Source: a plasmid | DNA: 64,000 nucleotides | Direction: 5' to 3' (one strand) | Sequence record: NZ_CP028352.1 | Part shown: one piece after another, positions 9,179 through 63,520 of the stretch | Numbering within the stretch: position 1 is the first letter of the stretch | Layout: each line of letters starts with the position of its first letter | Notes under the pieces: model-generated | What the model was told of the DNA's origin: nothing | The model's input: only the letters and a program-made list of their open reading frames with translations | The model's database searches: none | Program-made: the position numbers and the translations under genes

Positions 9179-11365
9179 CTATGACGCCACCCTCACAGGT
9201 GCCAGGGTCACGTAGTTCTGTGCGGCTTTTTCAATCGCCTCACGACCCGCGCCCATTAGGCGAGGTTCACGCAGGCGCACCTTATAGCCTCTTCCGCGTA
9301 TAGGCAGGCTTTCATTGACCATCCGCCAGAGTACAGCAGAACGGACCGCCGCTGCAGGCGTACGCTTCCAGCTGTACTCACATTCAAGATCAAACTCACA
9401 GACTGCAGCCAGCGCCGGGTCGGTTAGTATCAGATGACAGGTATGCTGCGCGCCTGGTGGCGCGTCCAGTACCTGTAGGATGCGCTGCACCCGCTCGGCA
9501 CGCACGTAACTGCGACGCCAGCGGTAAGGCATGACTGCCAGCAGCCTGGCTTCAGAAGGTGGACTGACCTCCATAAAACGGTTGATGCGCACAGCCTCAT
9601 TCGTGAATTTGTCATTGTCAGAGATATAGAGCGAGCTGCCGCGGACCACCTGGCCCCTGAAAAGAGTAACGTTTTCGCCCTCCTGCAGCGCCTGAACCTC
9701 TTCCACATCGACCTTTTTCTTTTCGCTCACCTGCAAGCGCGGATCATCCCTCAAACCGCTACCGAGGATGCTGCCCTGCTGCACAATGGCGCTCATGTGC
9801 GCACGGTATTCCGTGCCGGCCATCAGCTGCAGGATTTCCAGAGTGTCCTTTGGATCCATAATTTTGCCGGTAATTCGCACACCCATGTTGGCGATCAGCG
9901 TCCATACTGCGTCGCCCGCCGCCGTTTTCAGGCGCTGCACCTCTTGCCCGGCCAGCAACAGGCAGTAGCCCAGCGAGCGGATTTGAGTAGCCAGCTCACC
10001 CACTTTTTCACTGTAGCCGGCGCCCACCTCGTCGATAATCCAGAGCAGCGGAAAGCGGTCCTTGAATTTCCGCACTTTCATATTGTCTTGTGGCCGCCCT
10101 TCGATCTTCTCACCGAGATCCTGACTTAAAATCATGGCCAGCTGAGACTGATAAAGACGGCCCAGAGTACTGCTCTCCGTAGCGGAAAGCTCCAGCGCCG
10201 GTACCAGCACAATCAGGATACGATCGTTATGCACCACGTCCCGGAGGTCGATGTCACCCGCGTCGCGAGCAAACACGTGACCATAGGTGTCGTTGAACAG
10301 GCTTAGCATGCGAGTGTACTGCTGCATCAGGTAGCCGTGCTGGCGGTTCGCCTCGGGATCCCATTCTGATGGCGTGGCCACTTTATCCAGGTCAAAGCCG
10401 GCAAGCGTACTGAGGTAGTTTTCGAGCGCCACACGGATTTCCTCGTGCCACTGTTCCTCAACCGCCTGAACGTAGAGCCCGGCAATTTTTCGCAGCGGCA
10501 GGTGTGCCTGTATCGTGCGCTGCGACATCACCGTGCCTTCACGTCGACTCTTGTAGACCAGCGCTGTCACCAGTGCCTGGTTCATGGAGCGCGCCTTCTC
10601 CTGCCAGTCGCCGCCGCTGCTGCCGGTTTTAGGCAGCATGGAGTCCATCAGGTTGATGGTGTAGGTTTCCTGTGCAATACCGAACACACTGGTGGTATTG
10701 GTCTGCGGTCGCCCCTTCGCGTCTTCAAGTAGCTCCTGCGCACGCGAGCGCCCGCCGGTAATGAAGTTCATCAAGCGCAGGTCGTCTTCACGCCCGAAAC
10801 GGCGGGCCATAGACATCATGGCGAGCGCCACGTCGTTTTGTGCCTTGTGATCAGAAAAAATAACGCCCTTGCCCCAGCACAGTGCGTTGAATACCCAGCC
10901 CAGCAGCGTCTCCGTTTTACCGGCCCCGGTGGTGCCGAACATCAGCACGTGACGCGTAAGGTCGTCCATGGAAAGCCACAGTTCGCGCCCGGCGTCCCTG
11001 CCTCGCAGGTAACCAGCGTACAGTATGCCCGCCGCGCGGCTCGTATGAATGCGCACTGTGGCCACAGGCAGAAAGCCCAGCACCTTCGCCGGCACCTTAC
11101 GATCGGTCGACGGGTCGTCACGGTTCATGTCGGTTGGCATGCGCATTGGCATCTTCCAGCGGCCGGCGGGCATCACGACCAGCGACCAGAACATCAGCAC
11201 CGGTAGGCTCAGCACCAGCGTGGCCGGCCAGATAAAGCCCGCTCCAACGGCAGCCAACATTCCCCAAGCTAGCGTCCCGGTCTCACTCAGCACATCGATA
11301 AGCCATGAGCGGCCTGCGTGCCGGTGGACGCGAGTGCTGTCGAGCACTGAGTTACTGTCCGTCAT
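9179..11365 (-). CDS. trbC: Type IV coupling protein, TrbC/DotL-like, 728 aa
   Basis: N-terminal TM segments, Walker A MFGTTGAGKTE, Walker B LWIIDEVG; size and position match R64 TrbC. Confidence 0.75.
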   Translation of the reverse strand: MTDSNSVLDSTRVHRHAGRSWLIDVLSETGTLAWGMLAAVGAGFIWPATLVLSLPVLMFWSLVVMPAGRWKMPMRMPTDMNRDDPSTDRKVPAKVLGFLPVATVRIHTSRAAGILYAGYLRGRDAGRELWLSMDDLTRHVLMFGTTGAGKTETLLGWVFNALCWGKGVIFSDHKAQNDVALAMMSMARRFGREDDLRLMNFITGGRSRAQELLEDAKGRPQTNTTSVFGIAQETYTINLMDSMLPKTGSSGGDWQEKARSMNQALVTALVYKSRREGTVMSQRTIQAHLPLRKIAGLYVQAVEEQWHEEIRVALENYLSTLAGFDLDKVATPSEWDPEANRQHGYLMQQYTRMLSLFNDTYGHVFARDAGDIDLRDVVHNDRILIVLVPALELSATESSTLGRLYQSQLAMILSQDLGEKIEGRPQDNMKVRKFKDRFPLLWIIDEVGAGYSEKVGELATQIRSLGYCLLLAGQEVQRLKTAAGDAVWTLIANMGVRITGKIMDPKDTLEILQLMAGTEYRAHMSAIVQQGSILGSGLRDDPRLQVSEKKKVDVEEVQALQEGENVTLFRGQVVRGSSLYISDNDKFTNEAVRINRFMEVSPPSEARLLAVMPYRWRRSYVRAERVQRILQVLDAPPGAQHTCHLILTDPALAAVCEFDLECEYSWKRTPAAAVRSAVLWRMVNESLPIRGRGYKVRLREPRLMGAGREAIEKAAQNYVTLAPVRVAS

Positions 11366-12482
11366 GGCTGCCTCCGTTCAAAAACTCAGTGAGCGCCGCC
11401 GGTGAGCTGAGCACGCTCTGCGGCACGTAACGCCCGTCGTCGGAAATCGTCCACGGGGTGCCCGGCAGTCGGTAGGCGTGATACGCAACCTCATTGACGC
11501 CAATAGCGCCGCGGGCAAGTTCAGCGACATTTTCAGCAGGCACGGATGCCGCAGGCGCCTTGCCTGGAACACTGACGCCTGCATCGGCGGAGAAAAGCCG
11601 TTTCCACGCATCGGCCCGCTGAACTTCAGGGAGTGCCATTACCGGCGTCAGCACCTGAAGTGACGATACCCCACCGCGGATGGTGACGGGGAAAATTACC
11701 ACGTTGACGACGTCTGAAGCCGCTTCAAGATGGCGCTCCATGCGCTGACACTCCGGGCAATTTGGGTCAGAAAACACATACACCGTACGTGCGTGACCAG
11801 CCGAAAGGGGGACGGTAAACAGACCGCGTGACGCAGCGTTTCTGAGCTTAGACGGCAGCTCAGCTCGCACATTCAGCGGCAGGTCCCAGCCGTCAGCTGG
11901 CGCAGCGGCTGCTGATTGTTGAGTTTGCTGTTGCGGCGCACCATGGTCGATGTGTTCACCCTTGTCTTGAAGCTGCATCATGGACGGGGCCGCGGGTTCA
12001 GCAGGCGTATTGCGGGCAGGCCCCACTTTTGAGAGGAATTCCTGTCGCGAGTCCACTGTAGTAAGCATTGGGGTGTCATGAGCTGAAAGGAATTTGAAGC
12101 CGGTGATCGGTATTGCAAGCAAAAATCCTGCTGCAATCAAGGCTGCCGCGATATAACTGTACTTCCGCTGCCGCAGGCTGCGCAGGCGCATACTCTCTAC
12201 AGTGGTCATCAGGTCATTAATACAGCGTAGAAGTAATGCTGCATCCTCACCTCGGTAAAGAGGTGTCAGCGCGTCGTGCGCGTTCTGTGCGTAGAGCCCG
12301 TCACTGTGCACCACAAACCACGGCATCTGACGGAGAGAACAAAAGAACAGCATACTAATGCCATTCCCTGTCAGCGATCCCGACTCCGGGCCCCATTTTT
12401 CTTCTGTCTGATAACGTTGGACACTCAGCAAGTCTCCGATAATTTTGGCCACAAACGGGCCTTCTCTGCGAGATAAGTTCAT
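11352..12482 (-). CDS. trbB: Thioredoxin-fold disulfide isomerase TrbB-like, 376 aa
   Basis: CPEC redox motif (VYVFSDPNCPECQRMERHL); position next to trbC as in R64. Confidence 0.65.
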   Translation of the reverse strand: MNLSRREGPFVAKIIGDLLSVQRYQTEEKWGPESGSLTGNGISMLFFCSLRQMPWFVVHSDGLYAQNAHDALTPLYRGEDAALLLRCINDLMTTVESMRLRSLRQRKYSYIAAALIAAGFLLAIPITGFKFLSAHDTPMLTTVDSRQEFLSKVGPARNTPAEPAAPSMMQLQDKGEHIDHGAPQQQTQQSAAAAPADGWDLPLNVRAELPSKLRNAASRGLFTVPLSAGHARTVYVFSDPNCPECQRMERHLEAASDVVNVVIFPVTIRGGVSSLQVLTPVMALPEVQRADAWKRLFSADAGVSVPGKAPAASVPAENVAELARGAIGVNEVAYHAYRLPGTPWTISDDGRYVPQSVLSSPAALTEFLNGGSHDGQ

Positions 12483-51013: not shown

Positions 51014-51541
51014 CTAACACAAATCCAGAATAAACCGACTTGTAATTAACACCCTGAGCAGGATCTCGGATGCAACCCCCATAGCTGTCATTGCTTCAGC
51101 AAGAAGTTGTTCAATCTGAGCAACAGAGAAACGACCTTTGACAGCTATCTCAGCTGCAGGAAACCCCACTGAGTAGAGAATCGCACCCAGCATTTGGTTT
51201 TTGTTAAGCTCGGGGAAAAAAGGTTTAAGAGAGATAAGGGCTTCGGTACGTAATGAAGTAAATAGTTCATCACAATTAATACTGTACTTTGCGCAGATCT
51301 GACGGAAAGTGAAGCCAGCCCAAAACACAGTTTTGAGCTCAGGAAGGGAATCAGTATTGAAATGCTTCTGTACAGACTCCAGTGACTTTTTGACTGTGAC
51401 AGGAGCGATTTCAAGAAGGCTTGAGATGTCCTGATTATTTGCCCCTATAGAATAGAAACAAACGTTTGTAGCCTGCTTTGGGGTTAACGCAGGAAAATAC
51501 TTGCACAATTGTGCATATACAATAGGATCCACGGCAGCCAT
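51014..51541 (-). CDS. LuxR/GerE-type HTH regulator-like protein, 175 aa
   Basis: LTPKQATNVCFYSIGANNQDISSLLEIAPVTVKKSL looks like an HTH. Confidence 0.4.
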   Translation of the reverse strand: MAAVDPIVYAQLCKYFPALTPKQATNVCFYSIGANNQDISSLLEIAPVTVKKSLESVQKHFNTDSLPELKTVFWAGFTFRQICAKYSINCDELFTSLRTEALISLKPFFPELNKNQMLGAILYSVGFPAAEIAVKGRFSVAQIEQLLAEAMTAMGVASEILLRVLITSRFILDLC

Positions 51542-51650
51542 AGCAGCCTCCTAGTCAGGTTGATGTGGTTAGCTGGTTGTACAGGGGTCCAGCCTGTGCA
51601 ATCAGCGACATAGAACTTTAATTTGAGTTATGTCTTCGTTTTTAATCTCC

Positions 51651-53609
51651 TTACGGTCGTGGTAAATCTATATTCACAGGGCGCAATTCATCATCGCTGC
51701 TGAACTGAACCTGTTTCTGCTCCGGCTGCACTCCAGATTGGCTTAAGCTCATTTCGGTAGAGCGCACGCTGGCCATCTGTTCTGGATCGCTGACTTGGAA
51801 GATTTTCCCGTCTCGCTTATTCAGGTTCCTTACGACACCTGAATACAACACACGATTTACAGCCTTCTGCTCACCGCTAAGCGTTGTACTATCACCGCTG
51901 CGCCATGCGGTAAGCTCTGCGGCTAAATCATTATTGTAACGATCTGATTTACTATCAGGCGCTGCATAGACTTCTACTCTGTCACCAAAATCGGTCACAG
52001 CAGGTTTACCGTCTCGCAGATAGCTTACAGTGCCGTTACGCAGCAGACGCGTCTCATGCTCGCTTGATTTAAATGTCGGCACATTGTCACCCGGGCCAAA
52101 ATGAATAATGGCATTCGGTTCTGGCCACGCTCCTTTTTGTTCACGCGCAGCCCGCTTCTCACGATAGGCCCAGCCGCGCATCTGACTAAGTGCTGCTGCG
52201 TCTCCTTTAAGCGCTTCGCGTTCAACCCATGACTTCCAGCTCAGAGGTCGGTTAGCACCGGTTTTACTCAGGGCTTGACGTTCCTCGCGCAGCTGTAACC
52301 TTAGTTCAGCCATTGCTTTCATCTTTTCAAACTCAGCCACACGAAACATCAGCTTGCGCATCAACGGATCTCTGACCGTGTCACGAACGTGCGCTTTAAC
52401 CACAACACAATGTGATGCTATCTGCCGGAAGCGTTCACTGACACGCAGGTCAGGTTTCTCCCAGCTGCTGCGATAGGCATCATAGCGTGCGCGAAGGATG
52501 TCGCGGGCAATCGCACGAGCTTCGCGACGCTCTCTCCGCGCTTCCTGATCACGTACGTGCAGCTGCGGCATGTAGCAAGTGTCCATCCCGAGTATCCCGT
52601 CTTCTGGGCGGTCTGGATTGCCAACTGGCGGAGCAGGCTGATACTCACCATAACGACGATTCATCTCCGGTAGACTGATGGCCGGGTGAACGTCAGAGGC
52701 TTTAACGCTTACACCCTCAGGATTAAAGAGATCGTAAATCGCCAGACCGCCGCTCTGCTCGCGCACACCGAGGCCCTTCGTGTAAAGCACATTATGGAGC
52801 ATATCCCAGCTCAGAATCTCTCGCTCTGCAACCGTTGTGATCTTCTGACGTATCTCGCGAACGGCATAGCCGTGCAGGCTTTCCTTGTCAGAAAAGATTT
52901 CACGCTTCGCTGCACCCTGAGGCGCCGCTGGCATGTCCCGCTTAGTGCGATGAAGGTCGCCATACTCGTCCATTTGCCAGCTGCCGTTATCGACTTTAAA
53001 ACCGAGATCACGCTCAAGTATTCTGCAGCACTTCTGAAGCGTGTCGGCATCGTTCCAAATATTCTGCGCGCGGAAGGTTGCCGGATGAACGCGGTTAGCT
53101 GATACATGGCAATGCACATTGTCTGTATCGAGGTGAATGGCGGCCACGTACTGATGGTCCTCCATACCCAGCTGCTTCAGACTATGGCGTACAGATTTAA
53201 AAATCGCGTCAGGCGAAGGCTTCTCTTCGCTCTGCCAGGAAAGGATAAAGTGATAAACCGCATCTTTACACTTACGGTTTTGTGCCGCCGTCATGTTCAT
53301 CTCTGCCGCTGCGGTTTCGAGCGAAAAGCAGTTGGTTTCGCAAAGCACCTCACCAGAGAGCACGCGCTGAATGCCCTCTGGTGAAACACTGACGATCTCA
53401 CTATCTGATGCCGATTTTTTTCGGCCTACATAGTCAACCAGCTGGCCGAACCCGGGAGTGGAAACATACTCAGCGGACGTATCGAGAACTGGCTTATTCG
53501 GCTCAACTGCATCCGTATTTTTTTTCCCCTCACGCTTGCTGACGTATTCAACCAGCGTTTTAAAGCTGGTCTTCTTGTCACGACGCTTTAGAGGAATAAT
53601 CACGTTCAT
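51651..53609 (-). CDS. nikB: MOBP-family relaxase (NikB-like), 652 aa
   Basis: His-triad motif AAIHLDTDNVHCHVSANRVHP; HFILSW. Confidence 0.85.
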   Translation of the reverse strand: MNVIIPLKRRDKKTSFKTLVEYVSKREGKKNTDAVEPNKPVLDTSAEYVSTPGFGQLVDYVGRKKSASDSEIVSVSPEGIQRVLSGEVLCETNCFSLETAAAEMNMTAAQNRKCKDAVYHFILSWQSEEKPSPDAIFKSVRHSLKQLGMEDHQYVAAIHLDTDNVHCHVSANRVHPATFRAQNIWNDADTLQKCCRILERDLGFKVDNGSWQMDEYGDLHRTKRDMPAAPQGAAKREIFSDKESLHGYAVREIRQKITTVAEREILSWDMLHNVLYTKGLGVREQSGGLAIYDLFNPEGVSVKASDVHPAISLPEMNRRYGEYQPAPPVGNPDRPEDGILGMDTCYMPQLHVRDQEARRERREARAIARDILRARYDAYRSSWEKPDLRVSERFRQIASHCVVVKAHVRDTVRDPLMRKLMFRVAEFEKMKAMAELRLQLREERQALSKTGANRPLSWKSWVEREALKGDAAALSQMRGWAYREKRAAREQKGAWPEPNAIIHFGPGDNVPTFKSSEHETRLLRNGTVSYLRDGKPAVTDFGDRVEVYAAPDSKSDRYNNDLAAELTAWRSGDSTTLSGEQKAVNRVLYSGVVRNLNKRDGKIFQVSDPEQMASVRSTEMSLSQSGVQPEQKQVQFSSDDELRPVNIDLPRP

Positions 53610-53950
53610 TAGTCTTCTAATTCCTTTGCTTCTACTGGCGTCATGTCCAGTGCATTGATTGCTGTTACGATCCCTGAAAGGACCTCCGAGAACTGACGAC
53701 TTAGTTCCGTAGTCATCTGTTCCTGCATTTGCGTATACAGGTGTTTCTGTAAACCCCCCAGACGTTTCAGCTCATTCATCATGCGAATGTCTGTACGCAC
53801 CTGAATACGTCGGTTCAGCGCGGTACGCCTGAGATATTCTGAAGTCGTCAGTCCGGCCACTATGGCTTTTTTAGTAATGGCTTCATAGTCATCTTCCGAA
53901 CAACGAAACTTGATCCATTTGTCCTTCTGACCGGACTTACTATTCGACAT
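53609..53950 (-). CDS. nikA: Relaxosome accessory RHH protein (NikA/MobC-like), 113 aa
   Basis: Small basic protein that overlaps the relaxase start. Confidence 0.6.
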   Translation of the reverse strand: MSNSKSGQKDKWIKFRCSEDDYEAITKKAIVAGLTTSEYLRRTALNRRIQVRTDIRMMNELKRLGGLQKHLYTQMQEQMTTELSRQFSEVLSGIVTAINALDMTPVEAKELED

Positions 53951-53959
53951 AATTCAACC

Positions 53960-54160
53960 TTAACTCGGGACCGGGGTGTCGGGGCGAAGCCCTGACCAGG
54001 CGTTTTGGGAATCACAGTCAGCGTGCTGATTGTGGTCACAAAACATTTCCTGTCCCGTTATTTAATTAACTTTCGTTATTTTGCCATTTAGCTGTTTAGA
54101 AGTAAACCGACGTCATGTAGGGATGGGTATGGAAATTGCCACTGAAATCGAGCAAAATCA
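53960..54160. other. Candidate oriT
   Basis: Intergenic region upstream of nikA with the inverted repeat GTCGGGGCGAAGCCCTGAC (53978-53996) and an AT-rich segment. Confidence 0.5.
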
Positions 54161-54597: not shown

Positions 54598-55170
54598 TCA
54601 GTCGAAGACCTTTCGGTTATAAACAACTTTAAAATCGCTGTACTCCGGTCCATCACGCAGCGGTTCCAGCCGCACAACATTTTCCGCAATGCCGTTCATG
54701 GTCAGAACGCGTTCGATTCCTGTATGCCAGTCTTCTGCATCGTTCAGGGGAAACCAGAGGTTATTGTTGATCCCGCTCAATAGTGGGTCACAACAGATAT
54801 GAATGCCGCGCCCGTGGCGGGCATTACCGCTGCATGTAACAATCAGTTCACCACGAACTTCGCGCGTTAGTGACGAGTTAACTAACTTTTCTACCACGTC
54901 ATCCCAGTTCCAGTCCTCATCATCCGGCACCGGAAGTTCGACGAATCGCAATGATTTACACCCCGCGCGCGCCATGCTCTGCGCGAGTTCGAAAACTGAA
55001 GGTTCACCACACGAAGCATCTGCGCTGGTGATCCAGTTGCCGTGATGGAAAAACGCTTCATCGCCATTATCCAGACGAATAAACGTGTACTCTCCCAGCA
55101 CACGAATGATGTCATTCTGGGTCACGCGTGACGGTGTGACGGAAAAGTTCAGAGGGGTTGTACTACTCAT
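54598..55170 (-). CDS. Hypothetical leading-region protein, 190 aa
   Basis: ORF only. Confidence 0.45.
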   Translation of the reverse strand: MSSTTPLNFSVTPSRVTQNDIIRVLGEYTFIRLDNGDEAFFHHGNWITSADASCGEPSVFELAQSMARAGCKSLRFVELPVPDDEDWNWDDVVEKLVNSSLTREVRGELIVTCSGNARHGRGIHICCDPLLSGINNNLWFPLNDAEDWHTGIERVLTMNGIAENVVRLEPLRDGPEYSDFKVVYNRKVFD

Positions 55171-55316
55171 GCATTTTTCTCCATAGCAGCATTAACGGTC
55201 GTGATAAATTGCTGCCACATAGCAAACGGCATCGCCGGAACGTGGGCCATCTGACCTGAGCGTAAAGCATTTACAAACAGCATCGCATGTGCGACGATTT
55301 GCGGGTCAAAAATCAT
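55167..55316 (-). CDS. Small ORF, 49 aa, translationally coupled (ATGA) to the 190-aa gene
   Basis: MIFDPQIVAHAMLFVNALRSGQMAHVPAMPFAMWQQFITTVNAAMEKNA; below the 60-aa cutoff of the ORF track. Confidence 0.3.
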   Translation of the reverse strand: MIFDPQIVAHAMLFVNALRSGQMAHVPAMPFAMWQQFITTVNAAMEKNA

Positions 55317-55400
55317 ATAACTCTCCTGAGAGCCTGGTTTTGATAAGGCAACCAGGTAGGACTGGTTGCCGTGGAATAAGCAGGGGTAACCCTGCTTTTT

Positions 55401-55940
55401 TTACGCCTGTATATTGCCGCTCTGCTCCAGTTCTGAGGTCAGCCATTGACTGGCGCTGAACCATGCTTTTTCACCCTTAAGCCCGAAATGTGCCAGCGCG
55501 ATACGTCCTGCTTCTGCCCAGACTTCTGACTCATCAGCCGGAAGCACAACCGAATTTTCAGGAACTCGCTGCACGACCGCACTGGCTAAGTCATTCAGGA
55601 TTTGAGCCATTAAATCCCGGCGCTGTTTAAGCGTCATCGTAACTTCATTGATATCCGTCAGTGCCTTTAGCTGCTGATTTAGCGGCTGGAGAACGCCACG
55701 GCTATTGATGTACTTACGCAGCCAGTAGCCCGCATCATGTTCAAAGCTGAATGCACGCCAGATAAGTGCACCGGACGACTCACGCACGGCCAGACGGAAG
55801 TGACTGCCCTGATCGTCTTCAATGAAAACGTTGCTGAAAGCAGCCGTAATTTTTACAGCCTGCTCGCGTGTAAACGCGTCGTCGCCCAGCGCTGCTACGC
55901 AGCGCATGTCGGTGGTGGTGCCCGTCTGGGTCGAAGTCAT
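55401..55940 (-). CDS. Hypothetical leading-region protein, 179 aa (start at MTSTQTG)
   Basis: ORF immediately downstream of ssi-like repeat copy 1. Confidence 0.5.
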
Positions 55941-55989
55941 GATGTGCTCCTGTCTGAAATTAATGATCCGGCTGACCGCCGCGCGGTGC

Positions 55990-56437
55990 CCGAAAAGCCC
56001 TTCTCTGACGCGGTCTTTTTCTTTCCGGTCTGGCCTTTCGCGGCAAGGGCAAAGGAGCAACGACGAAGTGAAGGCATAAAGGGGCGACGACAAAAAGTTT
56101 TTGAGGCCTTTCGCAAAAAGTTTTTTTCGGCGTGCACTTCACCCCTTTTTGACTGAACCGGCGGTGCTACGACCAGCCCTCCAGCGCAAGGGCTGGCCGG
56201 AAGGCAGGGAGCGTCAGAAGGGATGTTTCAGACCGCCCGGCGGGCTGCCCTTAAAGTCCCGGCGGGGTTTGCCGGGACGGTGAAAGCGTCGGCGCAGCCG
56301 GCAGCAGCTTTTGACCCTGGACATCAGACCGAAACCGCTTGCGGCCGAAACCCGCAGGGGTTCGGTGGCGCTTGCCGGCTTGCCGGTTAGCGACATAGGG
56401 CTCGACGACCCGGCTTGCCGGGGAGCCGAAGGGGGCC
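55990..56437. repeat. ssi/Frpo-like leading-region repeat, copy 1 (about 450 bp)
   Basis: Shares long colinear blocks with 60359-60818 (listed in the findings). Confidence 0.7.
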
Positions 56438-56440
56438 CAA

Positions 56441-56470
56441 GCTGTTGCTGTTGCTGTTGCTGTTGCTGTT
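56441..56470. repeat. Hexanucleotide tandem repeat (GCTGTT)x5
   Basis: Direct reading of the sequence. Confidence 0.9.
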
Positions 56471-56644
56471 AATGCGACTTTATCGACGACGGGAAGAAAC
56501 AGCGGGTCTGAGAATTACTAGAGCAGATTGAGTCGAACGTTTGAAGGACATAAGCAGCTTAACGGGAACGGCCGGTGCGGCAGCACCGGCTATTCTATGC
56601 CCGCAGGGCGGCGGTGTTGCCGTTCCAATGCCGGCATACAATGC

Positions 56645-56671
56645 ATAAAAAACCGCGCCATAAGGCGCGGT
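56645..56671 (-). terminator. Rho-independent terminator after higA
   Basis: ACCGCGCC-ATAA-GGCGCGGT followed by a T run on the minus strand. Confidence 0.65.
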
Positions 56672-56692
56672 CTATGAGTTGCGTTGCGGTGT

Positions 56693-57010
56693 TTACTTGC
56701 CCGGCCGTTCTTCTGCAGAAGCGGCCAGCACACCCGGATGCAGATGCACCCCGGAAACGTCCGTATTTTCACGCGCTTTGTGCAGATCGCAGGCGGCCTG
56801 CATGGATAACCAGAGCCGCGCTGAAATACCCAGCCCCGCCTCCAGTCTCACCGCCATTTCCGGGCTGACCGACGCCTTACCGCTGGCGACCTTGCTGAGC
56901 GCCGAAGCTGATACGCCCAGCTCTTTCGCCAGTACGCGCAGGCCAATATTGTTATCTTCAATGTACTCGGTGATCAGGCCGCCCGGATGCGGGGGATTAA
57001 ACATGGCCAT
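56693..57010 (-). CDS. higA: HigA-family antitoxin (XRE HTH), 105 aa
   Basis: ITEYIEDNNIGLRVLAKELGVSASALSKVASGKASVSPEMAVRLEAGLGISARLWL. Confidence 0.8.
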   Translation of the reverse strand: MAMFNPPHPGGLITEYIEDNNIGLRVLAKELGVSASALSKVASGKASVSPEMAVRLEAGLGISARLWLSMQAACDLHKARENTDVSGVHLHPGVLAASAEERPGK

Positions 57011-57291
57011 CAGTGATAGTCCTCCAAGTTGAGAATGTAAGCATCACCGTCTGTAAATTCGAACGTAATGCGCCAGTTGGCTCTTACCGTAATTGAATAA
57101 AGATTTTTCCTGTCCCCTTTCAGGGGATGGAAGCGAAAGCCCGGATAGTTTTTAAATTCATCCGTCGATACCGCTTCATTAATCACCAGCAGGCGAAGCC
57201 TGATGCGTTCAGCATCTTTCGACTGTACACCGCTCACATCACCTTTCTCAAAAAGTTTCTGTAAACCCTTATGCTTCCAGCTCTTTATCAC
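57010..57291 (-). CDS. higB: HigB-family toxin (RelE/ParE superfamily), 93 aa with GTG start
   Basis: (M)IKSWKHKGLQKLFEKG...WRITFEFTDGDAYILNLEDYH; ATGA overlap with higA. Confidence 0.75.
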   Translation of the reverse strand: MIKSWKHKGLQKLFEKGDVSGVQSKDAERIRLRLLVINEAVSTDEFKNYPGFRFHPLKGDRKNLYSITVRANWRITFEFTDGDAYILNLEDYH

Positions 57292-58094
57292 GATAGTGCT
57301 CCGTGTTTCGTCTTGAGAAACATTATAGCATGCGTTTCGCATGGAGAAACAGTTTTATCTTTATTTTTCACGCTTGGTTGCTGTAATTTGTTCGGTATAA
57401 GCCATCGATTCATCTCGCGCTGCATGGTGTCGATATGCGGCACGCGCTGTTGAATCTCCCAGGCTACGTCACAAGCTGCATCTGAAGAGTACAACTGAAG
57501 GGTTTCAAGTCCGGCCAGCGACGGAAACCGGCACGACCAGACCCTGATCATATTTTTCAGATCGTGTTCCGGCACGAAGCCGCACCAGGCAGTAAACCAG
57601 CTGCGTAGAGTATCAGGCGTTCGGAAAGCCAGTTCTATTTCTGCCTGGCAGATGCGATTTTCCAGCTGGCGCGCCCGGTAGTCCTCCGCCTGCCTTTCAC
57701 GCCGCACTATACGGCTCACGCTTTTTTGTGCTGCATGTTCAGCACGTTCTGAGCGACGGAAAGCGGCTTCAGGAAACAATATCGTCGCAAGTTCTCCCGG
57801 CAGCGGCAGCGGACACACATCACCTGCCGTTCTAAGAAACGTATCCAGGGCGCTTTCCCATTCCGGCAGCGGCGCACGCTTCTCGCGCGGCCGCAGATAA
57901 ATTCCTCTGATACGGTTCAGCGCCCGGACGCTGATGCGACTCGCGCCACTCAGCTGCTTCATAAAAGCGGCCGCGTAGGGATGGCGGGCAAGTCGTGTCC
58001 CCCGCTGCTGGGCGTGCTCTACGATTGCGATTGCCTGAAGTGCGGCCTGTCGTTCTGGCAACAGCGGCATCAGTGCCAGTGAGGATGGGATCAT
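57288..58094 (-). CDS. Hypothetical protein, 268 aa
   Basis: Arg-rich ORF whose stop overlaps the higB GTG. Confidence 0.45.
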   Translation of the reverse strand: MIPSSLALMPLLPERQAALQAIAIVEHAQQRGTRLARHPYAAAFMKQLSGASRISVRALNRIRGIYLRPREKRAPLPEWESALDTFLRTAGDVCPLPLPGELATILFPEAAFRRSERAEHAAQKSVSRIVRRERQAEDYRARQLENRICQAEIELAFRTPDTLRSWFTAWCGFVPEHDLKNMIRVWSCRFPSLAGLETLQLYSSDAACDVAWEIQQRVPHIDTMQREMNRWLIPNKLQQPSVKNKDKTVSPCETHAIMFLKTKHGALS

Positions 58095-58537
58095 GCGGCG
58101 TGTCCTCCCATCTTCATCGCGGCAACAAGCTCCCCAGCGCCGGTAAAGCCGGCCCGCGTGTACTCAGCAATTACCGACAGTTTTTCCTGTAGTGCCATCG
58201 GATCAAGCTGGTTGCTGACGTACAGGCGCAGACGGCTGCGGGTGCGACTGTCTGCCACTACCGCACACCATGCGGGCCAGCAGGCAGACGGGCTTACCAG
58301 CTCAACGGCGATCTCTTCCATTTCTGGCTGCGACAGTCGCAGATGTATGGGATAAGCCCCGCCCCATTCACCGCGCATCTCGCAATCCATGCGCCAGCTG
58401 TCTGGCAGCTTCAGCGCACTGTGTACCAGGCCGCACATGCGAAGGCGCGCAGCTTCTCCGTGTTCGCTCAGTTCTTCAAGATCGCAGCCTGAAAACGTCT
58501 GCAATGCATTTAGGGTAAATTGTTCGTCTCGGATCAT
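58091..58537 (-). CDS. Hypothetical protein, 148 aa
   Basis: ORF with ATGA overlap to the downstream gene. Confidence 0.45.
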   Translation of the reverse strand: MIRDEQFTLNALQTFSGCDLEELSEHGEAARLRMCGLVHSALKLPDSWRMDCEMRGEWGGAYPIHLRLSQPEMEEIAVELVSPSACWPAWCAVVADSRTRSRLRLYVSNQLDPMALQEKLSVIAEYTRAGFTGAGELVAAMKMGGHAA

Positions 58538-58633
58538 TATGTTTTGCTCTGTTTCGCGGTTCGTGGCTCCGGCCCGGTTATCGAGCCGGAGAGGTTTCCG
58601 GCAGGGGTCAACCCTGCCAGCCTGGCTGGATGG

Positions 58634-60310
58634 TTATTCCGGCTTGTACGCCATCAGGCGAACCACACGAACCCCGGTTCCCGCAAACATGCCCTCAATC
58701 GGCGCAGACCAGTTGCAGTCCCAGCCTGGCAGCAGGTCTTTGCGGTCACTGCCTGCGGGCAGAATGGCCGCCAAGCGCCCGCCGTCCTTCACCAGTGCCG
58801 CCGCTGCGTTAAGGTGCGCTACTGCCCGACCTTCGCTGTATGGCGGATTCATCACTACTACGTCAAAACGTTGCGGCGTCATCTGCGACCATTGCAGGAA
58901 ATCGGCTTCGATCACGTTGTGTCCTTTTGCCTCCAGTACGCGGCAGTGCAGCGGCGAAATCTCTACGCAGGTGGTTTGCATTTTCGGCATCAGGTCGGCA
59001 AGTCCGCCCATACCCGCGCTCGGCTCCAGGCAGGTTTCCCCCTCGCGGATATCCGCCTCGTTAAGCAGCTGCGCGGCGAGTTCGCCCGTGGTCGGGTAAA
59101 ACTGGTGTGTTTTCTGGTCCGGCAGCGCGCCGGAAAGCTGGACATCTTCAAGCGCCGTTGTCGGGTCGTAATCAAACTCGAACCAGGTAAAAGCATTGAT
59201 ATTCATTTTTACGCCGCCCAGGCTCATAAGCACTTTTTCTGCTTCTGCGCGTGCGGCCTTGTTCTCATCCGAATAACCTTTTAAACGGCGGTTAAAGGGG
59301 TTCGTAGTGACAGGCGGGCGCGGTTCTTCCCAGCGGTTGCGCTTTAAGGGTTCGGTGCGCTCTGTCTCCAGATCACTGAGTACGCTCAGGACAGAAAAAG
59401 GCAGCAGATTCGAATGCAGATCAAAACTTTTTACCTTTGTGCGCGGCTTCTGACGGTGCTCCGCAGGGATAGCCGCCGGATGCAAGAAGGCCAGAATGTC
59501 ATTAAGGCGCCAAGCCATGTCCGGATGAATTTCAAGGTGAATAGTGCCTTTCATAAAGGCTTTTACGCGCAGTGCTCCGCCGTCGATAGCAACCCACTCA
59601 CCCGAACGGGCGCGCGCGATGTTCAGAATTTTATTAGTCGTGTTCAGGCCGGTAGCATCACGGCCCATGAACTTCGCAATCACTTTGCGCAGGTCATCTA
59701 CGTAGCCGGTGCGCTCGTAATTGCACATTCCCCACTGATCGAACATGCATTCGATAATCATGCGTTTGCTGAAGCCTTCCGGGCGGTTGGTCACGTGGCT
59801 GCGTGACAGGCTGCGGAAAATACCGTCAACGCGCTCGGAGAAAAATTTCTGACGTGAGAAAAGCAGCTCGGAAAGCGTCGCGCGCACGGCATTTTCCTCA
59901 AAATCCGGTGCTTTCATCTCATGGATCTGATTGTTCCACTCGTTGCGGCGATCGTTGGGCATATACTCGTAAACGTCAGTCAGGTTTAGCGCCTGTTGCC
60001 AGAAATCAGCGTTAAGGGAAGCTATCGCGCCAGGCAAGTCAAACACCACGCGCACAGGCGGCATGTGCAGCCGGGAATTACGTACATTGCCACGCATGAA
60101 ATACTCAACCGCATCGGCATTCTCACCTTCGCGTAAAGTGGCCGAAATATTTTTTAATTTTGCGTACATCAAGCCATAGCGGCCTAACAGGCCGTCAATA
60201 ACGTCTGTTTCAACGGGTGCAAAAAAGGTATCTGAAATGACTTCCCCGGCGTTGATTGGGCCGCGGTCGGTTGTCGCATCAGGGGTGACGTTTACGAGTG
60301 TGTTTTGCAT
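58634..60310 (-). CDS. Orphan N6-adenine DNA methyltransferase with a long N-terminal extension, about 558 aa
   Basis: C-terminal motif I LEPSAGMGGL and motif IV VMNPPY; start MQNTLVNV lies immediately downstream of repeat copy 2. Confidence 0.7.
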   Translation of the reverse strand: MQNTLVNVTPDATTDRGPINAGEVISDTFFAPVETDVIDGLLGRYGLMYAKLKNISATLREGENADAVEYFMRGNVRNSRLHMPPVRVVFDLPGAIASLNADFWQQALNLTDVYEYMPNDRRNEWNNQIHEMKAPDFEENAVRATLSELLFSRQKFFSERVDGIFRSLSRSHVTNRPEGFSKRMIIECMFDQWGMCNYERTGYVDDLRKVIAKFMGRDATGLNTTNKILNIARARSGEWVAIDGGALRVKAFMKGTIHLEIHPDMAWRLNDILAFLHPAAIPAEHRQKPRTKVKSFDLHSNLLPFSVLSVLSDLETERTEPLKRNRWEEPRPPVTTNPFNRRLKGYSDENKAARAEAEKVLMSLGGVKMNINAFTWFEFDYDPTTALEDVQLSGALPDQKTHQFYPTTGELAAQLLNEADIREGETCLEPSAGMGGLADLMPKMQTTCVEISPLHCRVLEAKGHNVIEADFLQWSQMTPQRFDVVVMNPPYSEGRAVAHLNAAAALVKDGGRLAAILPAGSDRKDLLPGWDCNWSAPIEGMFAGTGVRVVRLMAYKPE

Positions 60311-60358
60311 GGCATAGCTCCTTAAATCCGGCTGAGTGGGTGCAGCACGCGCTGCGGA

Positions 60359-60818
60359 CCCGAAAAAGACCTTCTCTGACGCGGGTTTTATCTTTCCGGT
60401 CTGGCCTTTCGCGGCGAAGGGCAAAGGAGCAACGGCAGACGACCGGAGTATGGGCGTCACCGGAGGCCGCAGCGCAAGCGAGCCGGGTTTATGGCGAGTG
60501 CGAACGGGCGAGGAACGGCGAAGCGAACCTATACGGCAGGGCGGATGACGGTGCTACGAAAAGCCCTCCGCGAAAGACTGGGCCGGAAGGCAGTAAAAGC
60601 CGTCAGGGACCGCCCGGCGGTCCTCCCTGGAGCCGCGGCGGCCCCTCTGCCGGGGCGGTGAAGGCACCGGCGCTAGCCGGTTGCAGGGGTTGACCTTAGC
60701 CATCAGACTCTAGCCGGCAGGCCCGAAACCGCTTGCGGGTTCGGCGGAGCTTACCGGCTTTGCCGGTTAGCGGAGTGAGGCTAGACGAGCCGGCGAAGCC
60801 GGGGAGCCGGAGGGGGCC
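60359..60818. repeat. ssi/Frpo-like leading-region repeat, copy 2
   Basis: Colinear with 55990-56437. Confidence 0.7.
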
Positions 60819-61552
60819 ACTTCAGGAATTAGCTGGATATTTAATTTGGTAATTTTTTTACCTTCCATAGCATCCGTCTTAAAAATATAATATCCATTAC
60901 TAAGCTGATGATTTTTTATTTTTTTAGCAAGGATATTATCTGCCGAATAATTCACTATCGCAAAGTAATCATTTTCAATAAAAACATCATACTCTACTTT
61001 ATTATGGCAATTGATATAAGACGTCAAAAATGCACCAGGAAAAACAACTATAAATAAAAAAACCAACAAAAATACCCTGCAACGATTAATAACGTTGATA
61101 ATGCCCACTTCGCTCTCATCTTGATAATGCCATGATTTACCATTAAAAACATTTGCAAGATGCTCCTTGTTCCTTAAGATTACACCAATTTCAATACATA
61201 TAACAACTGCTGCAAAAATTAACGCATAAATCTGGTTAAAACCTTTAGTAGAATAATAAGCAACAGCAGGGAAATAAATAAAAATAAAAACCATCATAAG
61301 CCTTACATAGATACGACTCTTCTTTTTTCTAAACAAAAAATAATAGAATGAAAAACCAAGAATTACAAAAAAAACCATTATAAAATACAAGGATGTATAT
61401 GCAATCCTCATAACATCTAAGCTCATTAACTCAAGAGGTATTTTATAAAAAAACGCCTGCGCAAGTATTCCCATGAATGCCTGTAAGTATAAGGTTCCAG
61501 TTATGGCAGCCAGTATGTAACTATCTTTATTGAGTATTTTCATTTTAATCAC
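60767..61552 (-). CDS. AT-rich polytopic membrane protein, 261 aa (about 28% GC); the C-terminal 20 codons read into the GC-rich repeat
   Basis: Five predicted TM helices; an abrupt composition change at about 60825 and 61612. Confidence 0.5.
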   Translation of the reverse strand: MIKMKILNKDSYILAAITGTLYLQAFMGILAQAFFYKIPLELMSLDVMRIAYTSLYFIMVFFVILGFSFYYFLFRKKKSRIYVRLMMVFIFIYFPAVAYYSTKGFNQIYALIFAAVVICIEIGVILRNKEHLANVFNGKSWHYQDESEVGIINVINRCRVFLLVFLFIVVFPGAFLTSYINCHNKVEYDVFIENDYFAIVNYSADNILAKKIKNHQLSNGYYIFKTDAMEGKKITKLNIQLIPEVAPSGSPASPARLASLR

Positions 61553-61620
61553 TTTAAACGTATAAGTATTTTTATTTTACATGACTGGAATCAAAGTCGC
61601 AGACTTTGACTATAGTTTAG

Positions 61621-61636
61621 CCGCCGCAGGCGGCGG
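61621..61636. promoter_or_regulatory. GC hairpin CCGCCG-CAGG-CGGCGG
   Basis: Perfect 6-bp inverted repeat. Confidence 0.4.
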
Positions 61637-61670
61637 GTGTTTCGCGCGGCAAAACGCATTTCCGGGCGTC

Positions 61671-61695
61671 CCTGCCCTGCCCTGCCCTGCCCTGC
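61671..61695. repeat. Pentanucleotide tandem repeat (CCTGC)x5
   Basis: Direct reading; lies upstream (on the minus strand) of the AT-rich membrane gene. Confidence 0.9.
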
Positions 61696-61705
61696 TCTCC
61701 TTTCT

Positions 61706-62101
61706 TTATTCGTTTATAGCGAGGTGTATGCGCATTAGTGCTTCCCGGACTGCGCTCGCTTCCCCTTCAGGACCTGCCTCTGGCAATCTTTCCGCTGCCT
61801 GCAACAATATTTCCACATCGCAGGCTGAAAGAGTCACCAGCCGGTTATGCCGTTCGGCGGCATAGCAAATGTTATCAGCAAGAACGCGGAGGGTTTCAGC
61901 CCCCACGCCCGCCTCGTGCTGCGCATCCCTGTCCCACGTGGCGAGGTCGCAGATGATTTCGGTGGCGGTTTCCCCGGTTACATGCTCCTCGCCCATTACC
62001 CTCATCACGTCTTCTTTACGCCAGATAATCAGCGTGATTTTCTGGTCGCCCTCAAACTGCGCTTTCAGGCGGTTACACAGCTGGCTTACGGTTCCGTACA
62101 T
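61706..62101 (-). CDS. Leading-region protein of unknown function, 131 aa, paralog A
   Basis: N-terminus MYGTVSQLCNRL...TLIIWRKEDV is shared with the adjacent gene. Confidence 0.55.
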   Translation of the reverse strand: MYGTVSQLCNRLKAQFEGDQKITLIIWRKEDVMRVMGEEHVTGETATEIICDLATWDRDAQHEAGVGAETLRVLADNICYAAERHNRLVTLSACDVEILLQAAERLPEAGPEGEASAVREALMRIHLAINE

Positions 62102-62115
62102 GGTTTTCTCCTTAC

Positions 62116-62136
62116 CGGGGCGGCGCTGCCGCCCCG
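62116..62136 (-). promoter_or_regulatory. 9-bp GC hairpin (CGGGGCGGC-GCT-GCCGCCCCG) 3 nt upstream of the SD of paralog A
   Basis: Perfect stem; identical in context to 62592-62612. Confidence 0.5.
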
Positions 62137-62148
62137 TCCTGTCAGATT

Positions 62149-62577
62149 TTATTTTTTACCGCCGCTCTGCTCTCTCAGCAGCGCGCTGATCCGGCAAAGT
62201 GCCGCCGTTTCCGCCGGGAACCGGCGGGCAAATGCCCCTTCCCCGTTCTGCGCATCCTCAAGGCGCATAAAGTCCCATGCCACCCTGATCGCCGTCTCAA
62301 GCGCAGCTGCGGGCACGGTTGCTTCCCGCACCTGCTCAGCCTCATCCAGCAGACTTTGCGCCAGGCTCTGCAACTCATCGAGTCCCACGCCTGTATCATG
62401 CTGATCATCCTGCCATTCAATTCGTCTTAAAATTTCTTCGGCGGCTTCATCTGTGATTCTGGAATCATCCAGGACAGCCAGCACGTCTTCTTTTGTCCAG
62501 ATAATCAGCGTCATAAGTTCGTCAGATTTGAAGTGCTGCATCAACCGGGCGCAGAGTGCGTTAACGGTTCCGTACAT
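62149..62577 (-). CDS. Leading-region protein of unknown function, 142 aa, paralog B
   Basis: MYGTVNALCARL...TLIIWTKEDV. Confidence 0.55.
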   Translation of the reverse strand: MYGTVNALCARLMQHFKSDELMTLIIWTKEDVLAVLDDSRITDEAAEEILRRIEWQDDQHDTGVGLDELQSLAQSLLDEAEQVREATVPAAALETAIRVAWDFMRLEDAQNGEGAFARRFPAETAALCRISALLREQSGGKK

Positions 62578-62591
62578 GGTTTTCTCCTTAC

Positions 62592-62612
62592 CGGGGCGGC
62601 CCTGCCGCCCCG
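62592..62612 (-). promoter_or_regulatory. 9-bp GC hairpin (CGGGGCGGC-CCT-GCCGCCCCG) between klcA and paralog B
   Basis: Same stem as 62116-62136. Confidence 0.5.
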
Positions 62613-62619
62613 TGATTTA

Positions 62620-63057
62620 TCAGTTCAGGGCGCAGAAAATGGCGGCCGCTTCGGGATGGGTTTTCACACATTCCATCAGCTGGCGGTGGCGCTGGCAGAA
62701 ATGCGCACTCAGTTCTTCGTCGTCGTGGCGGTCGTAGAGCCAGCTGCGATGGTTAAGAACCAGCGCCGTGATGATGATCCCCGCCGCGTCGGCGCTGATT
62801 TCCAGTTCCGTCCAGTGATACGGGTTCGAATACATGTAGCGTTCTTCGCCTTCCGGTTTCATGTACCCGCCGCCGCCAGGCAGCTGTACAAAGTCCCAGA
62901 CCGTTCCGTCATAGTTCGCCAGGTAGCGGCTGGCGTAGAGGTACACGTTGTTTTCGGCCTGCACGTAATCGTGACCAAACAGGGAAGGCAGAAAACGCAG
63001 ACTGACAAAATCGGCCAGAACGGATGCCGTCGGGAAAACGTGGGGTTGTGTGTTCAT
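62620..63057 (-). CDS. klcA: KlcA/ArdB-family anti-restriction protein, 145 aa
   Basis: MNTQP...LADFVSLRFLPSLFG...YDGTVWDFVQLPGGGGYMKP...ELEISADAAGIIITALVL...HPEAAAIFCALN matches KlcA throughout. Confidence 0.75.
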   Translation of the reverse strand: MNTQPHVFPTASVLADFVSLRFLPSLFGHDYVQAENNVYLYASRYLANYDGTVWDFVQLPGGGGYMKPEGEERYMYSNPYHWTELEISADAAGIIITALVLNHRSWLYDRHDDEELSAHFCQRHRQLMECVKTHPEAAAIFCALN

Positions 63058-63135
63058 CAGATATCTCCGCAGTCAAAGGGGTTACAGTTCCGGCCTGTGC
63101 CGTGACTGAATGACAGCCCGGCGGAAAGCGGAGTG

Positions 63136-63300
63136 TTCAGGAGCGACACCGCAGGCCGCAGCGCAAGCGAGCGGGAGACGGGATTACGCACGGCGCTGGC
63201 GCGAATTTCTGAGCGGCAGCGCGACGGAAGTAAGCGCGGCGGAGCGAGTGCGAACGGGCGAGGATGGCGAGCGGAGCGATCTCTTGAACACGCAGCGGCC
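63136..63300. repeat. Divergent third copy of part of the ssi/Frpo-like repeat, upstream of klcA
   Basis: Shares GAGGCCGCAGCGCAAGCGAGC and GAGTGCGAACGGGCGAGGA with copy 2. Confidence 0.55.
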
Positions 63301-63520
63301 GGGCTAAAGTGAAGTCACGGCACCGGCCGCAGACCGCACGGACCAGGTTTTCTGCCCTGTCCCGCCGCATGGCGGAATATAGCGGCGCGCAGCAACTTCC
63401 TTATTCCATTCTGTCCACAGCCCGGGTGCATAGCCTGGCTATAACCCTGTGGACAAAAGCGCAACGGCGGCAGTATCCGCGCACAGACAGCAGGCGATCA
63501 TAAAATGACCGCCCCGTCCG

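Follow-up and report, generated by a model that had tools for sequence, protein, structure and literature searches.

Three candidate single-stranded-DNA promoters, one of them a mosaic of two classes, in the leading region of a Pantoea/Erwinia-type conjugative plasmid

The right-hand end of a 64,000-nucleotide stretch of plasmid DNA (sequence record NZ_CP028352.1; the whole stretch is called the window here, and the strand as given is the + strand) carries three GC-rich repeats that are probably single-stranded-DNA promoters of a plasmid leading region, a reading to which we assign a probability of roughly 0.78. Judged by their sequences, copy 1 appears to be a divergent class-1 (Frpo/ssi/ssp1-type) promoter, copy 3 a class-2 (ssp2-type) promoter, and copy 2 a putative mosaic that joins a class-1 base (stem, extended -10 TGCTAC and leader) to a class-2 apex. 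Most of this is known biology: single-strand promoters of classes 1 and 2, found in a further plasmid. The mosaic class formed by copy 2 and about 60 relatives is previously undescribed; its novelty is modest, as is that of a companion segment, module D, which follows copies 1 and 2. An earlier note on this DNA had proposed an Frpo/ssi-like identity for the repeats, and this is upheld by homology, strand, + strand folding, covariation, and conserved boxes at the junction of duplex and bubble.

Frpo of plasmid F, as described by Masai and Arai, is reportedly, like the ssi repeats of ColIb-P9, a hairpin promoter that is active on the entering single strand. Wen et al. distinguish three classes with start sites mapped by 5' rapid amplification of cDNA ends (5' RACE): class 1 consists of ssi1-3 and Frpo, class 2 lies upstream of klcA/ardA and was identified by RNA-seq together with 5' RACE, and class 3 lies upstream of M.EcoGIX (PMC12672017). 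The same classes were named ssp1-3 by Fraikin et al., with F ssp2 located upstream of yfgB (ArdB), where it reportedly stalls complementary-strand synthesis until UvrD acts (bioRxiv 10.64898/2026.01.09.698686). Sequences of known and candidate Frpo elements are available from Samuel et al. 2024 (PMC11541004 Suppl. Table 2).

The right end of the window comprises the transfer origin and leading region of a conjugative plasmid. Over the stretches compared it is ~95-99% identical to the Pantoea agglomerans plasmid NZ_CP143409, which has an IncFII replicon, a MOBP relaxase and MPF_I. The relaxase and nikA genes diverge from a region resembling an origin of transfer (oriT; Table 1), and its nick-like motif is presumably akin to the R64 nick sequence. 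A 160-nucleotide (nt) stretch of this oriT-like DNA is matched in 438 plasmids, 3-kb mobilizable ones among them. All identified genes from 54.6 kb to the window end are on the minus strand, which makes the + strand their template. According to a published rule, the relaxase is the last to enter and the anti-defence genes of a leading region are templated by the transferred strand, or T-strand (PMC11541004). With the gene orientation seen here, the rule identifies the + strand as the T-strand, which would enter 5'-first from ~54053.

A 300-nt sliding fold of single-stranded DNA (ssDNA), the method used for pESBL in PMC12672017, was calculated over 53-64 kb. The three strongest + strand minima coincide with the three elements (-78, -74.5 and -71 kcal/mol), and at each of them the complement is 9-20 kcal/mol weaker. 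For the exact hairpins, the + strand is 10-16 kcal/mol more stable than the complement, with the largest difference (16) in copy 1. The z-scores of these folds (Table 1) agree with the earlier description of the repeats as rich in internal inverted repeats. All three elements are local GC peaks (0.60-0.68) with a positive GC skew. The hairpins lie 30-66 nt upstream of the minus-strand start codons at 55940, 60310 and 63057, and thus each copy does stand 5' of a gene or operon on the transferred-strand template, as had been stated. A scan of 50-64 kb against Rfam (E<=1) returned nothing at the elements and two weak, unrelated matches at 55304-55400 and 51534-51607.

The three elements had been taken for copies of one repeat. 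For copies 1 and 2 this holds in so far as they are colinear: they share 69.2% global identity over ~460 nt (shuffled sequences, 52.0±0.8%), BLAST aligns them at 92% over 76 nt and 72% over 282 nt, and one of their common colinear blocks extends for 67 nt at 85%. The likeness is segmental, however, with 89% identity in the 5' base arm, 66% in the 3' base arm and 74.5% in the 3' flank (module D), whereas the central ~100 nt (46%) are at noise level and unrelated. Copy 3 stands apart, sharing no block with copy 1 and only two short ones with the centre of copy 2 (33 nt at 91% and 21 nt at 100%), so that the set is better described as two classes and a mosaic. Its description as a divergent partial copy at 63136-63300 proved too narrow, since its arms were found as an inverted repeat that forms a hairpin of 239 nt. 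No further copies of the elements are present in the 64-kb window.

For copy 3, BLAST identified Frpo*1, Frpo'4 and the F region upstream of the antirestriction gene. It has matches in 3588 plasmids; in 3311 of these the match is nearly complete in length, mostly in Klebsiella plasmids at ~71% identity. Over its entire length, copy 3 can be aligned with F ssp2 and with the insect-metagenome Frpo'4, Frpo*1 and Frpo*3; Frpo'4 is reported to be 86% identical to F ssp2 (PMC13478746). With the ssp2 elements of pESBL (klcA/ardA) and F (yfgB/ardB) it has in common a klcA/ardB-type cargo, the same covarying hairpin, the boxes and the -10 bubble. It differs from the Klebsiella and F versions in that the identity is just ~70-72% and the apical insert is unlike theirs, and a start site and roadblock activity are established for the F and pESBL versions only.

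Twelve class-2 sequences were aligned: the window, Klebsiella, two each from Serratia, Enterobacter and Erwinia, F ssp2, and three insect-metagenome candidates. The consensus hairpin has 41 pairs, and 94.5% of the cells are paired as compared to 32-38% in slid controls. Compensatory changes occur in 20 of the 41 pairs (1-7 in slid controls), and none of 500 shuffles was as good. Cells with G.T outnumber those with A.C by 20 to 4, an excess that points to selection on the + strand, although the cells are not independent. The -35 is itself in duplex, and in 11 of the 12 sequences its first T is in a G.T pair; the arrangement TTGnnn-15-TAnnnT is kept in 11 of the 12 as well. The -10 lies within a 7x7 internal loop; the internal loop in the spacer is asymmetric, with more nucleotides on the template arm. 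When 13 class-2 copies were folded individually, the junction fell between a paired T(-12) and an unpaired A(-11) in 12, F ssp2 included. In the fetched Klebsiella, Serratia, Enterobacter and Erwinia loci, class-2 homologues lie upstream of klcA-type, ArdA or methylase genes. What precedes the methylase in the Enterobacter, Erwinia and Serratia plasmids is thus a class-2-like element and not a distinct class 3.

Several other features of the class-2 hairpins were observed. They occur two to three times per leading region in Enterobacter p11A17010_B_KPC, Erwinia sp. QL-Z3 and Serratia, also before methylase and hypothetical genes. The hexamer AAGCGG (63126-63131 in the window), which we take to be the hexamer of factor-Y/PriA effector sites, is located in the conserved asymmetric internal loop and is near-invariant in the 12 homologues; its frequency in the window (48 found, 47 expected) shows no enrichment. 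On the 3' side of the hairpins is a second conserved motif, AGCGG(A/C)GC..GC(G/A)AC(A/T)TCCTTA, which is found in the F, Klebsiella, Serratia and insect-metagenome homologues and takes the form AGCGGCGCGCAGCAACTTCCTTA at ~63372-63400 in the window.

Among published sequences, those nearest to copy 1 are Frpo*5-7 from a Salmonella enterica island (Samuel et al. 2024), which have the same base module and a class-1 apex; the identity to Frpo*5 is 82% over 148 nt. Their outer stem is F-like (CCATCTCTCGGTGAGTTC), while that of copy 1 is of the Pantoea/Erwinia type. Homology to ColIb-P9 Frpo1 is distant (75% over 71 nt at the apex, E 3e-6), and the F leading region gave one 34-nt match only. Nevertheless, copy 1 is colinear over ~155 nt with F Frpo1/2 and ColIb Frpo1-3, in line with a comparison that the earlier note had suggested along with the + strand fold. 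An alignment was made of copy 1, F Frpo1/2, ColIb Frpo1-3, a Serratia Frpo and the relatives of copy 1. Projection of the copy-1 fold onto it left 78.5% of the cells paired (39-55% in slid controls), a percentage that is inflated by taking the structure from the window sequence itself. The alignment contains 17 compensatory pairs, and none of 500 shuffles was as good.

In general terms, copy 1 and the base of copy 2 can be compared with F Frpo1/Frpo2 (ssiD; ssp1a/b) and ColIb-P9 ssi1-3 by the place in the leading region, the presence on the T-strand, the psiB-type operons downstream of such elements, and the long imperfect hairpin. With F ssiD and ColIb Frpo1, copy 1 also has in common an A/T palindrome (CAAAAAGTTTTT), a 9-nt bulge in the 3' arm (TGCAYTTCA), a GGGG/CCCC helix, and an internal loop at the distal box; the apex features of copy 1 (56091-56145) recur in Frpo*5 as well. 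The outer stem is unlike that of F Frpo and the distal box is TGCTACGAC in copy 1 as opposed to GGCTGTCTT in F. The hexamer that follows CCCC is TTTTTG/TTGACT in copy 1 and TGGACN in F and ColIb. A candidate extended -10 is positioned at the edge of an internal loop (Table 1). No correctly spaced hexamer resembling TTGACA was found in copy 1, where the consensus scan was negative. In Erwinia and Pantoea plasmids, relatives of copy 1 lie upstream of DUF905, DUF932-type and other leading operons.

The proposed mosaic nature of copy 2 is based on separate comparisons of its base and its apex. A base-module motif, GGC(A/G)AAGGGCAAAGGAGCAACG ... CGGTGCTACGA..GCCCTCC, was found in 22 elements, of which nine have a class-1 apex and 13 a class-2-like apex. 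All 22 contain TGCTAC, a count to be read with the knowledge that the elements were chosen by a pattern that includes GCTAC. Among the folds of base modules, 12 of 21 combine a paired T(-12) with an unpaired A(-11), and the others open 1-2 nt further on. With respect to the apex, 12 copy-2-type and 12 class-2 sequences were aligned by MAFFT to the pattern GGGCG.CACCG.AGGCCGCAGCGCAA ... GCGAACGGG.GAGGA ... GCG.ACC(CTTGC), and the copy-2-type apex matches the class-2 apex block for block, the -35-bearing helix included. Both apex types were found on both outer stems, the Pantoea/Erwinia MOBP type and the F-like type, which suggests that the parts have been reshuffled.

The copy-2-type inner core is present in ~60 plasmids. 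Eight copy-2-type loci were fetched, and in these the matched core begins ~50 nt upstream of the gene that opens a leading operon; in two F-like plasmids it occupies the slot beside the lytic transglycosylase that is held by Frpo1 in F. From these observations it is possible, if somewhat doubtful, that the promoters are modular, with a base (fork-junction -10, start and leader) and an apex (-35 helix/UP-like palindrome) that recombine freely, and that module D, which accompanies class-1-base promoters, may be a second functional part of the unit.

An assignment of copy 2 to class 3 (ssp3) was considered and rejected: BLAST gave no match to F 48-68 kb, the region upstream of the F methylase included. 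Like the class-3 elements, which precede an M.EcoGIX-type methylase, copy 2 has a methyltransferase gene downstream; however, its product has 558 amino acids (aa) and a DUF4942 domain, in contrast to the small N6_N4 methylase.

Homologues of the elements in 14 other plasmids have the same orientation and lie upstream of leading operons that begin with klcA, ardA, methylase, ParB-psiB, DUF932 or DUF905. A canonical double-stranded sigma-70 promoter was found on neither strand of the three intergenic regions by a consensus scan, which also missed the higA terminator described below. As to the in-stem -35 and -10 named in the earlier note, each hairpin holds a candidate -10, and copies 1 and 2 have a weak -35 or none.

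A mechanism may be proposed from the known systems and the predicted folds. The relaxase would nick oriT at ~54052/54053, and the + strand would enter the recipient 5'-first. Upon arrival, each GC-rich segment would snap into an imperfect hairpin of 230-280 nt, in which a sigma-70 promoter would have the 3' arm for its non-template strand and the 5' arm, continuous with the genes 5' of the hairpin, for its template. The stem duplex is predicted to stop at T(-12), with the -10 from A(-11) onward in a built-in bubble that mimics a fork junction or open complex. In this manner, the hairpin would supply a duplex -35 and spacer together with a pre-opened -10. From spacing alone, transcription would start in the 5' arm at template positions ~56046 (copy 1, with a leader of ~106 nt), ~60418 (copy 2) and ~63103 (copy 3). 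RNA polymerase would then run from loop to base, toward oriT, and transcribe DUF905, methyltransferase-psiB-psiA-higBA, and klcA-DUF1380, respectively. Synthesis of the complementary strand would abolish the hairpin and leave the -10 arm pointing away from the genes, so that the promoter would be off. Owing to the bubbles and the G.T pair, a sense-strand copy lacks the boxes, and the consensus scan reveals no double-stranded sigma-70 promoter that reads in the direction of the genes; both are consistent with such a switch-off.

Several points weigh against the promoter assignment. The placement of the nick and the choice of strand draw on gene order, orientation and a presumed likeness to the R64 oriT. 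Recognition by RNA polymerase, the start sites, early timing and switch-off are predictions that draw on homology and position as well as on covariation and strand-specific folding. The boxes depart widely from consensus, with no T(-7) in TACGAC and TACGAA, and the consensus scan recovers none of the candidate hairpin boxes. There is no convincing -35 in copy 1, as its TTGACT is just 13 nt from the -10, and the class-2 spacer is 15 nt, on the non-template arm. In copy 2, the -35 equivalent is ATACGG (60531-60536), which is not TTG-like; some relatives keep TTGCGG 18 nt upstream of the -10, the TTG having been lost in the window copy, and activity would have to rest on the extended -10. The z-score of copy 2 is also modest (-2.9), one of 200 shuffles folding equally well. 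Covariation does not speak for the inner base module, which is invariant (RNAalifold, with the apex replaced by a linker), and the outer stems differ too much for an alignment. The minimum free energy (MFE) predictions ignore single-stranded DNA-binding protein, and the inflated pairing percentage for class 1 has been mentioned. Lastly, Samuel et al. graded Frpo*5-7, the nearest kin of copy 1, as low-certainty, with a -35 and -10 that differ (PMC11541004).

Instead of promoters, the elements could be mainly signals for complementary-strand synthesis, either ssi priming sites for an RNA-polymerase primer or primosome, or replication roadblocks. Module D and the spacer hairpins, which have no promoter-like features, would suit this explanation, as would AAGCGG in the class-2 internal loop if it is, as we presume, linked to factor Y/PriA; the hexamer is nevertheless as frequent in the window as expected. 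Precedent exists as well: F Frpo entered the literature as an ssi signal with transcripts that prime DNA synthesis (PMC7690428), and the F homologue of copy 3, ssp2, is the element reported to stall complementary-strand synthesis until UvrD acts (bioRxiv 10.64898/2026.01.09.698686). A priming role is compatible with promoter function, however, and the same elements in F and pESBL drive early mRNAs with mapped starts (PMC12672017). The spacing of 30-66 nt and the correct orientation toward start codons would be needless in a pure priming site, and we consider this explanation unlikely. Alternatively, these could be conventional double-stranded promoters, operators or 5' leader RNAs with hairpin potential in ssDNA as a by-product. 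Part of each 5' arm would indeed be transcribed as a ~46-108 nt leader, no block is better conserved between copies 1 and 2 than the 5' base arm, and leading genes also need repression in established cells. Against this, the consensus scan detected no sigma-70-like promoter on the minus strand, the mRNA-sense strand folds less stably than the + strand by the 10-16 kcal/mol given above, and the G.T pairs, one of which is kept in 11 of 12 sequences, would become C.A mismatches in the transcript sense. Furthermore, a leader from the predicted start holds one arm only, which means that the hairpin could not form, and stems that span 230-280 nt far exceed operators. This makes the double-stranded explanation very unlikely.

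The elements are also repeated, GC-rich and palindromic, and they stand at the boundaries of differing cargo (an AT-rich open reading frame (ORF) here, an SduA-domain gene in NZ_CP143409), features that would be expected of functionless remnants of mobile or repetitive DNA, such as insertion sequence (IS) ends, miniature inverted-repeat transposable elements (MITEs) or repetitive extragenic palindromic (REP)-like sequences. An identity as IS or REP fragments had been named in the earlier note among the findings that would refute its reading. It is hardly credible in view of the following: neither a transposase in the neighbouring leading region nor any pattern of terminal repeats or target duplications is present; position, and orientation relative to oriT and the downstream gene, are fixed at all loci examined; the matches are plasmid records in leading-region context, with no additional copies in the window; and compensatory changes preserve the fold across genera. 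A MITE was rejected on the same observations.

If the elements are single-strand promoters, they would set which plasmid genes (anti-SOS, anti-restriction, methylase) act in the first minutes after entry and thereby affect the establishment of the plasmid in a new host. The known logic would then be united in one plant-associated plasmid (Pantoea/Erwinia-type, MOBP/MPF_I) outside the E. coli models. The proposed promoter classes may not be discrete, and elements that have exchanged modules may serve as natural swap constructs for separating the role of the apex from that of the -10 bubble. In annotation, such elements can be relied upon to mark a leading region and to show which strand is transferred.

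Module D provides a further element that accompanies class-1-type promoters and may belong to the timing mechanism. It is ~140 nt in length and is composed of three hairpins, as in D1 and D2 of the window. The single-stranded linkers are near-invariant (e.g. GCCATCAGAC and GGAGCCGAAGGGGGCC) while the hairpin stems are replaced wholesale between plasmids. These features were judged from per-sequence folds, as MAFFT misaligned the variable stems and RNAalifold recovered the middle hairpin alone. In all 15 copies compared, module D lies 3' (on the T-strand) of a class-1-base hairpin, and in all 15 the + strand is the stabler one. The copy-2 query region matched 1971 plasmids and the inner core alone 60; thus, module D explains most of the 1971. 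The module is widespread in Klebsiella and other plasmids. It sets copy 1 apart from the F elements, as it has no BLAST match in the F leading region, and it has none in Rfam. Our guess would be that it acts as a roadblock or priming site controlling the time for which the promoter stays single-stranded. Module D is without prior description in the literature on these promoters covered here. Directly after D1, in intergenic DNA, there is a perfect microsatellite, (GCTGTT)x5, at 56441-56470.

Table 1. Positions of the hairpins, candidate promoter boxes, genes and other features in the window
Feature	Position	Strand	Details
MOBP relaxase gene	51651-53609	-	
NikA-like gene	53609-53950	-	
oriT-like region	53973-54059		5' of nikA; inverted repeat GGGGTGTCGGGGCGAAGCCCTGACC and nick-like motif
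Putative oriT nick region	54044-54059	+	CATTTCCTG / TCCCGTT, nick at the slash; read from sequence
DUF905 protein gene, 179 aa	55401-55940	-	first downstream of copy 1; Pfam PF06006, E 8e-26
Copy 1 hairpin	55970-56249 (280 nt)	+	MFE -77.6 kcal/mol, z -5.9; minus strand -61.1
Copy 1 apex A/T palindrome	56091-56103 / 56114-56125	+	CAAAAAGTTTTTG / CAAAAAGTTTTT; hairpin drawing
Copy 1 apex 9-nt 3'-arm bulge, then CCCC	56133-56141, 56142-56145	+	TGCACTTCA; hairpin drawing
Copy 1 candidate extended -10	56165-56173	+	TG-C-TACGAC; T(-12) paired, A(-11) unpaired, then internal loop
Module D1	56300-56437 (core); 56250-56437 with spacer hairpins	+	three conserved hairpins
Terminator-like hairpin after higA	56646-56680	-	ACCGCGCC-TTAT-GGCGCGGT-TTTTTT; read directly; closes copy-2 operon
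higA	56693-57010	-	Pfam
higB	57010-57291	-	Pfam
psiA	57288-58094	-	Pfam
psiB	58091-58537	-	Pfam
DUF4942/methyltransferase gene, 558 aa	58634-60310	-	downstream of copy 2; Pfam
Copy 2 hairpin	60376-60606 (231 nt)	+	MFE -53.3 kcal/mol, z -2.9; minus strand -38.8
Copy 2 class-2-like apex	60434-60548	+	GGGCGTCACCGGAGGCCGCAGCGCAAGCGAGCC ... GGCGAGTGCGAACGGGCGAGGAACGGCGAAGCGAACC; blocks common with copy 3; MAFFT alignment
Copy 2 candidate extended -10	60552-60560	+	TG-C-TACGAA; T(-12) paired, A(-11) unpaired
Module D2	60680-60818	+	same three-hairpin module as D1
DUF1380 genes (two)	62149-62577, 61706-62101	-	PF07128
klcA/ardB-type antirestriction gene	62620-63057	-	downstream of copy 3; PF03230 Antirestrict, E 8e-20
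Copy 3 hairpin	63091-63329 (239 nt)	+	MFE -68.6 kcal/mol, z -4.9; minus strand -58.6
Copy 3 candidate -35	63284-63289	+	TTGAAC; 3' arm; 15-nt spacer to -10
Copy 3 candidate -10	63305-63310	+	TAAAGT; T63305 paired; 63306-63312 unpaired, opposite 63108-63114
M.EcoGIX-type N6_N4 methylase gene	starts 63787	-	region upstream of gene beyond window end

The cargo of the three elements is classical, contrary to the earlier emphasis on different cargo. What had been listed as an unknown protein of 179 aa is a DUF905 protein, the gene for which comes after ssb in F; the presumed methyltransferase-higBA operon also holds psiB-psiA; and klcA is typical of class 2 (PMC12672017). The gene order of the copy-2 operon (56693-60310) is annotated alike in NZ_CP143409 and E. 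amylovora LA637P2. The terminator-like hairpin that closes this operon has an 8-bp GC stem, a TTAT loop and T6, and was not listed by the consensus scan. Downstream of klcA, the tandem DUF1380 paralogues come with a direct repeat (62003-62137 / 62479-62613, 76%). A 21-nt GC palindrome, CGGGGCGGC.CTGCCGCCCCG (62116-62136 and 62592-62612), stands before the start codon of each and may be an intercistronic stem-loop.

Between the copy-2 and copy-3 units is an AT-rich island at 60830-61560, with a GC content of ~0.28 against ~0.55 around it. It contains an ORF of 261 aa (60767-61552, minus strand), the 3' end of which reaches into module D2. This ORF and two others of 190 and 76 aa had no PADLOC or Pfam match. 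In NZ_CP143409, the corresponding slot holds a Shedu SduA-domain gene and a hypothetical gene, which suggests a variable cargo slot bounded by promoter units. A second perfect microsatellite, (CCCTG)x5.2, is found in intergenic DNA upstream of the AT-rich ORF (61670-61695). Between the DUF905 gene and the 190-aa ORF, at ~55170-55320 on the minus strand, there is an ORF of 49 aa that RefSeq relatives label 'succinate dehydrogenase flavoprotein subunit' (11228-11377 in one of the loci compared); this is almost certainly a small leading-region gene that has been mis-annotated.

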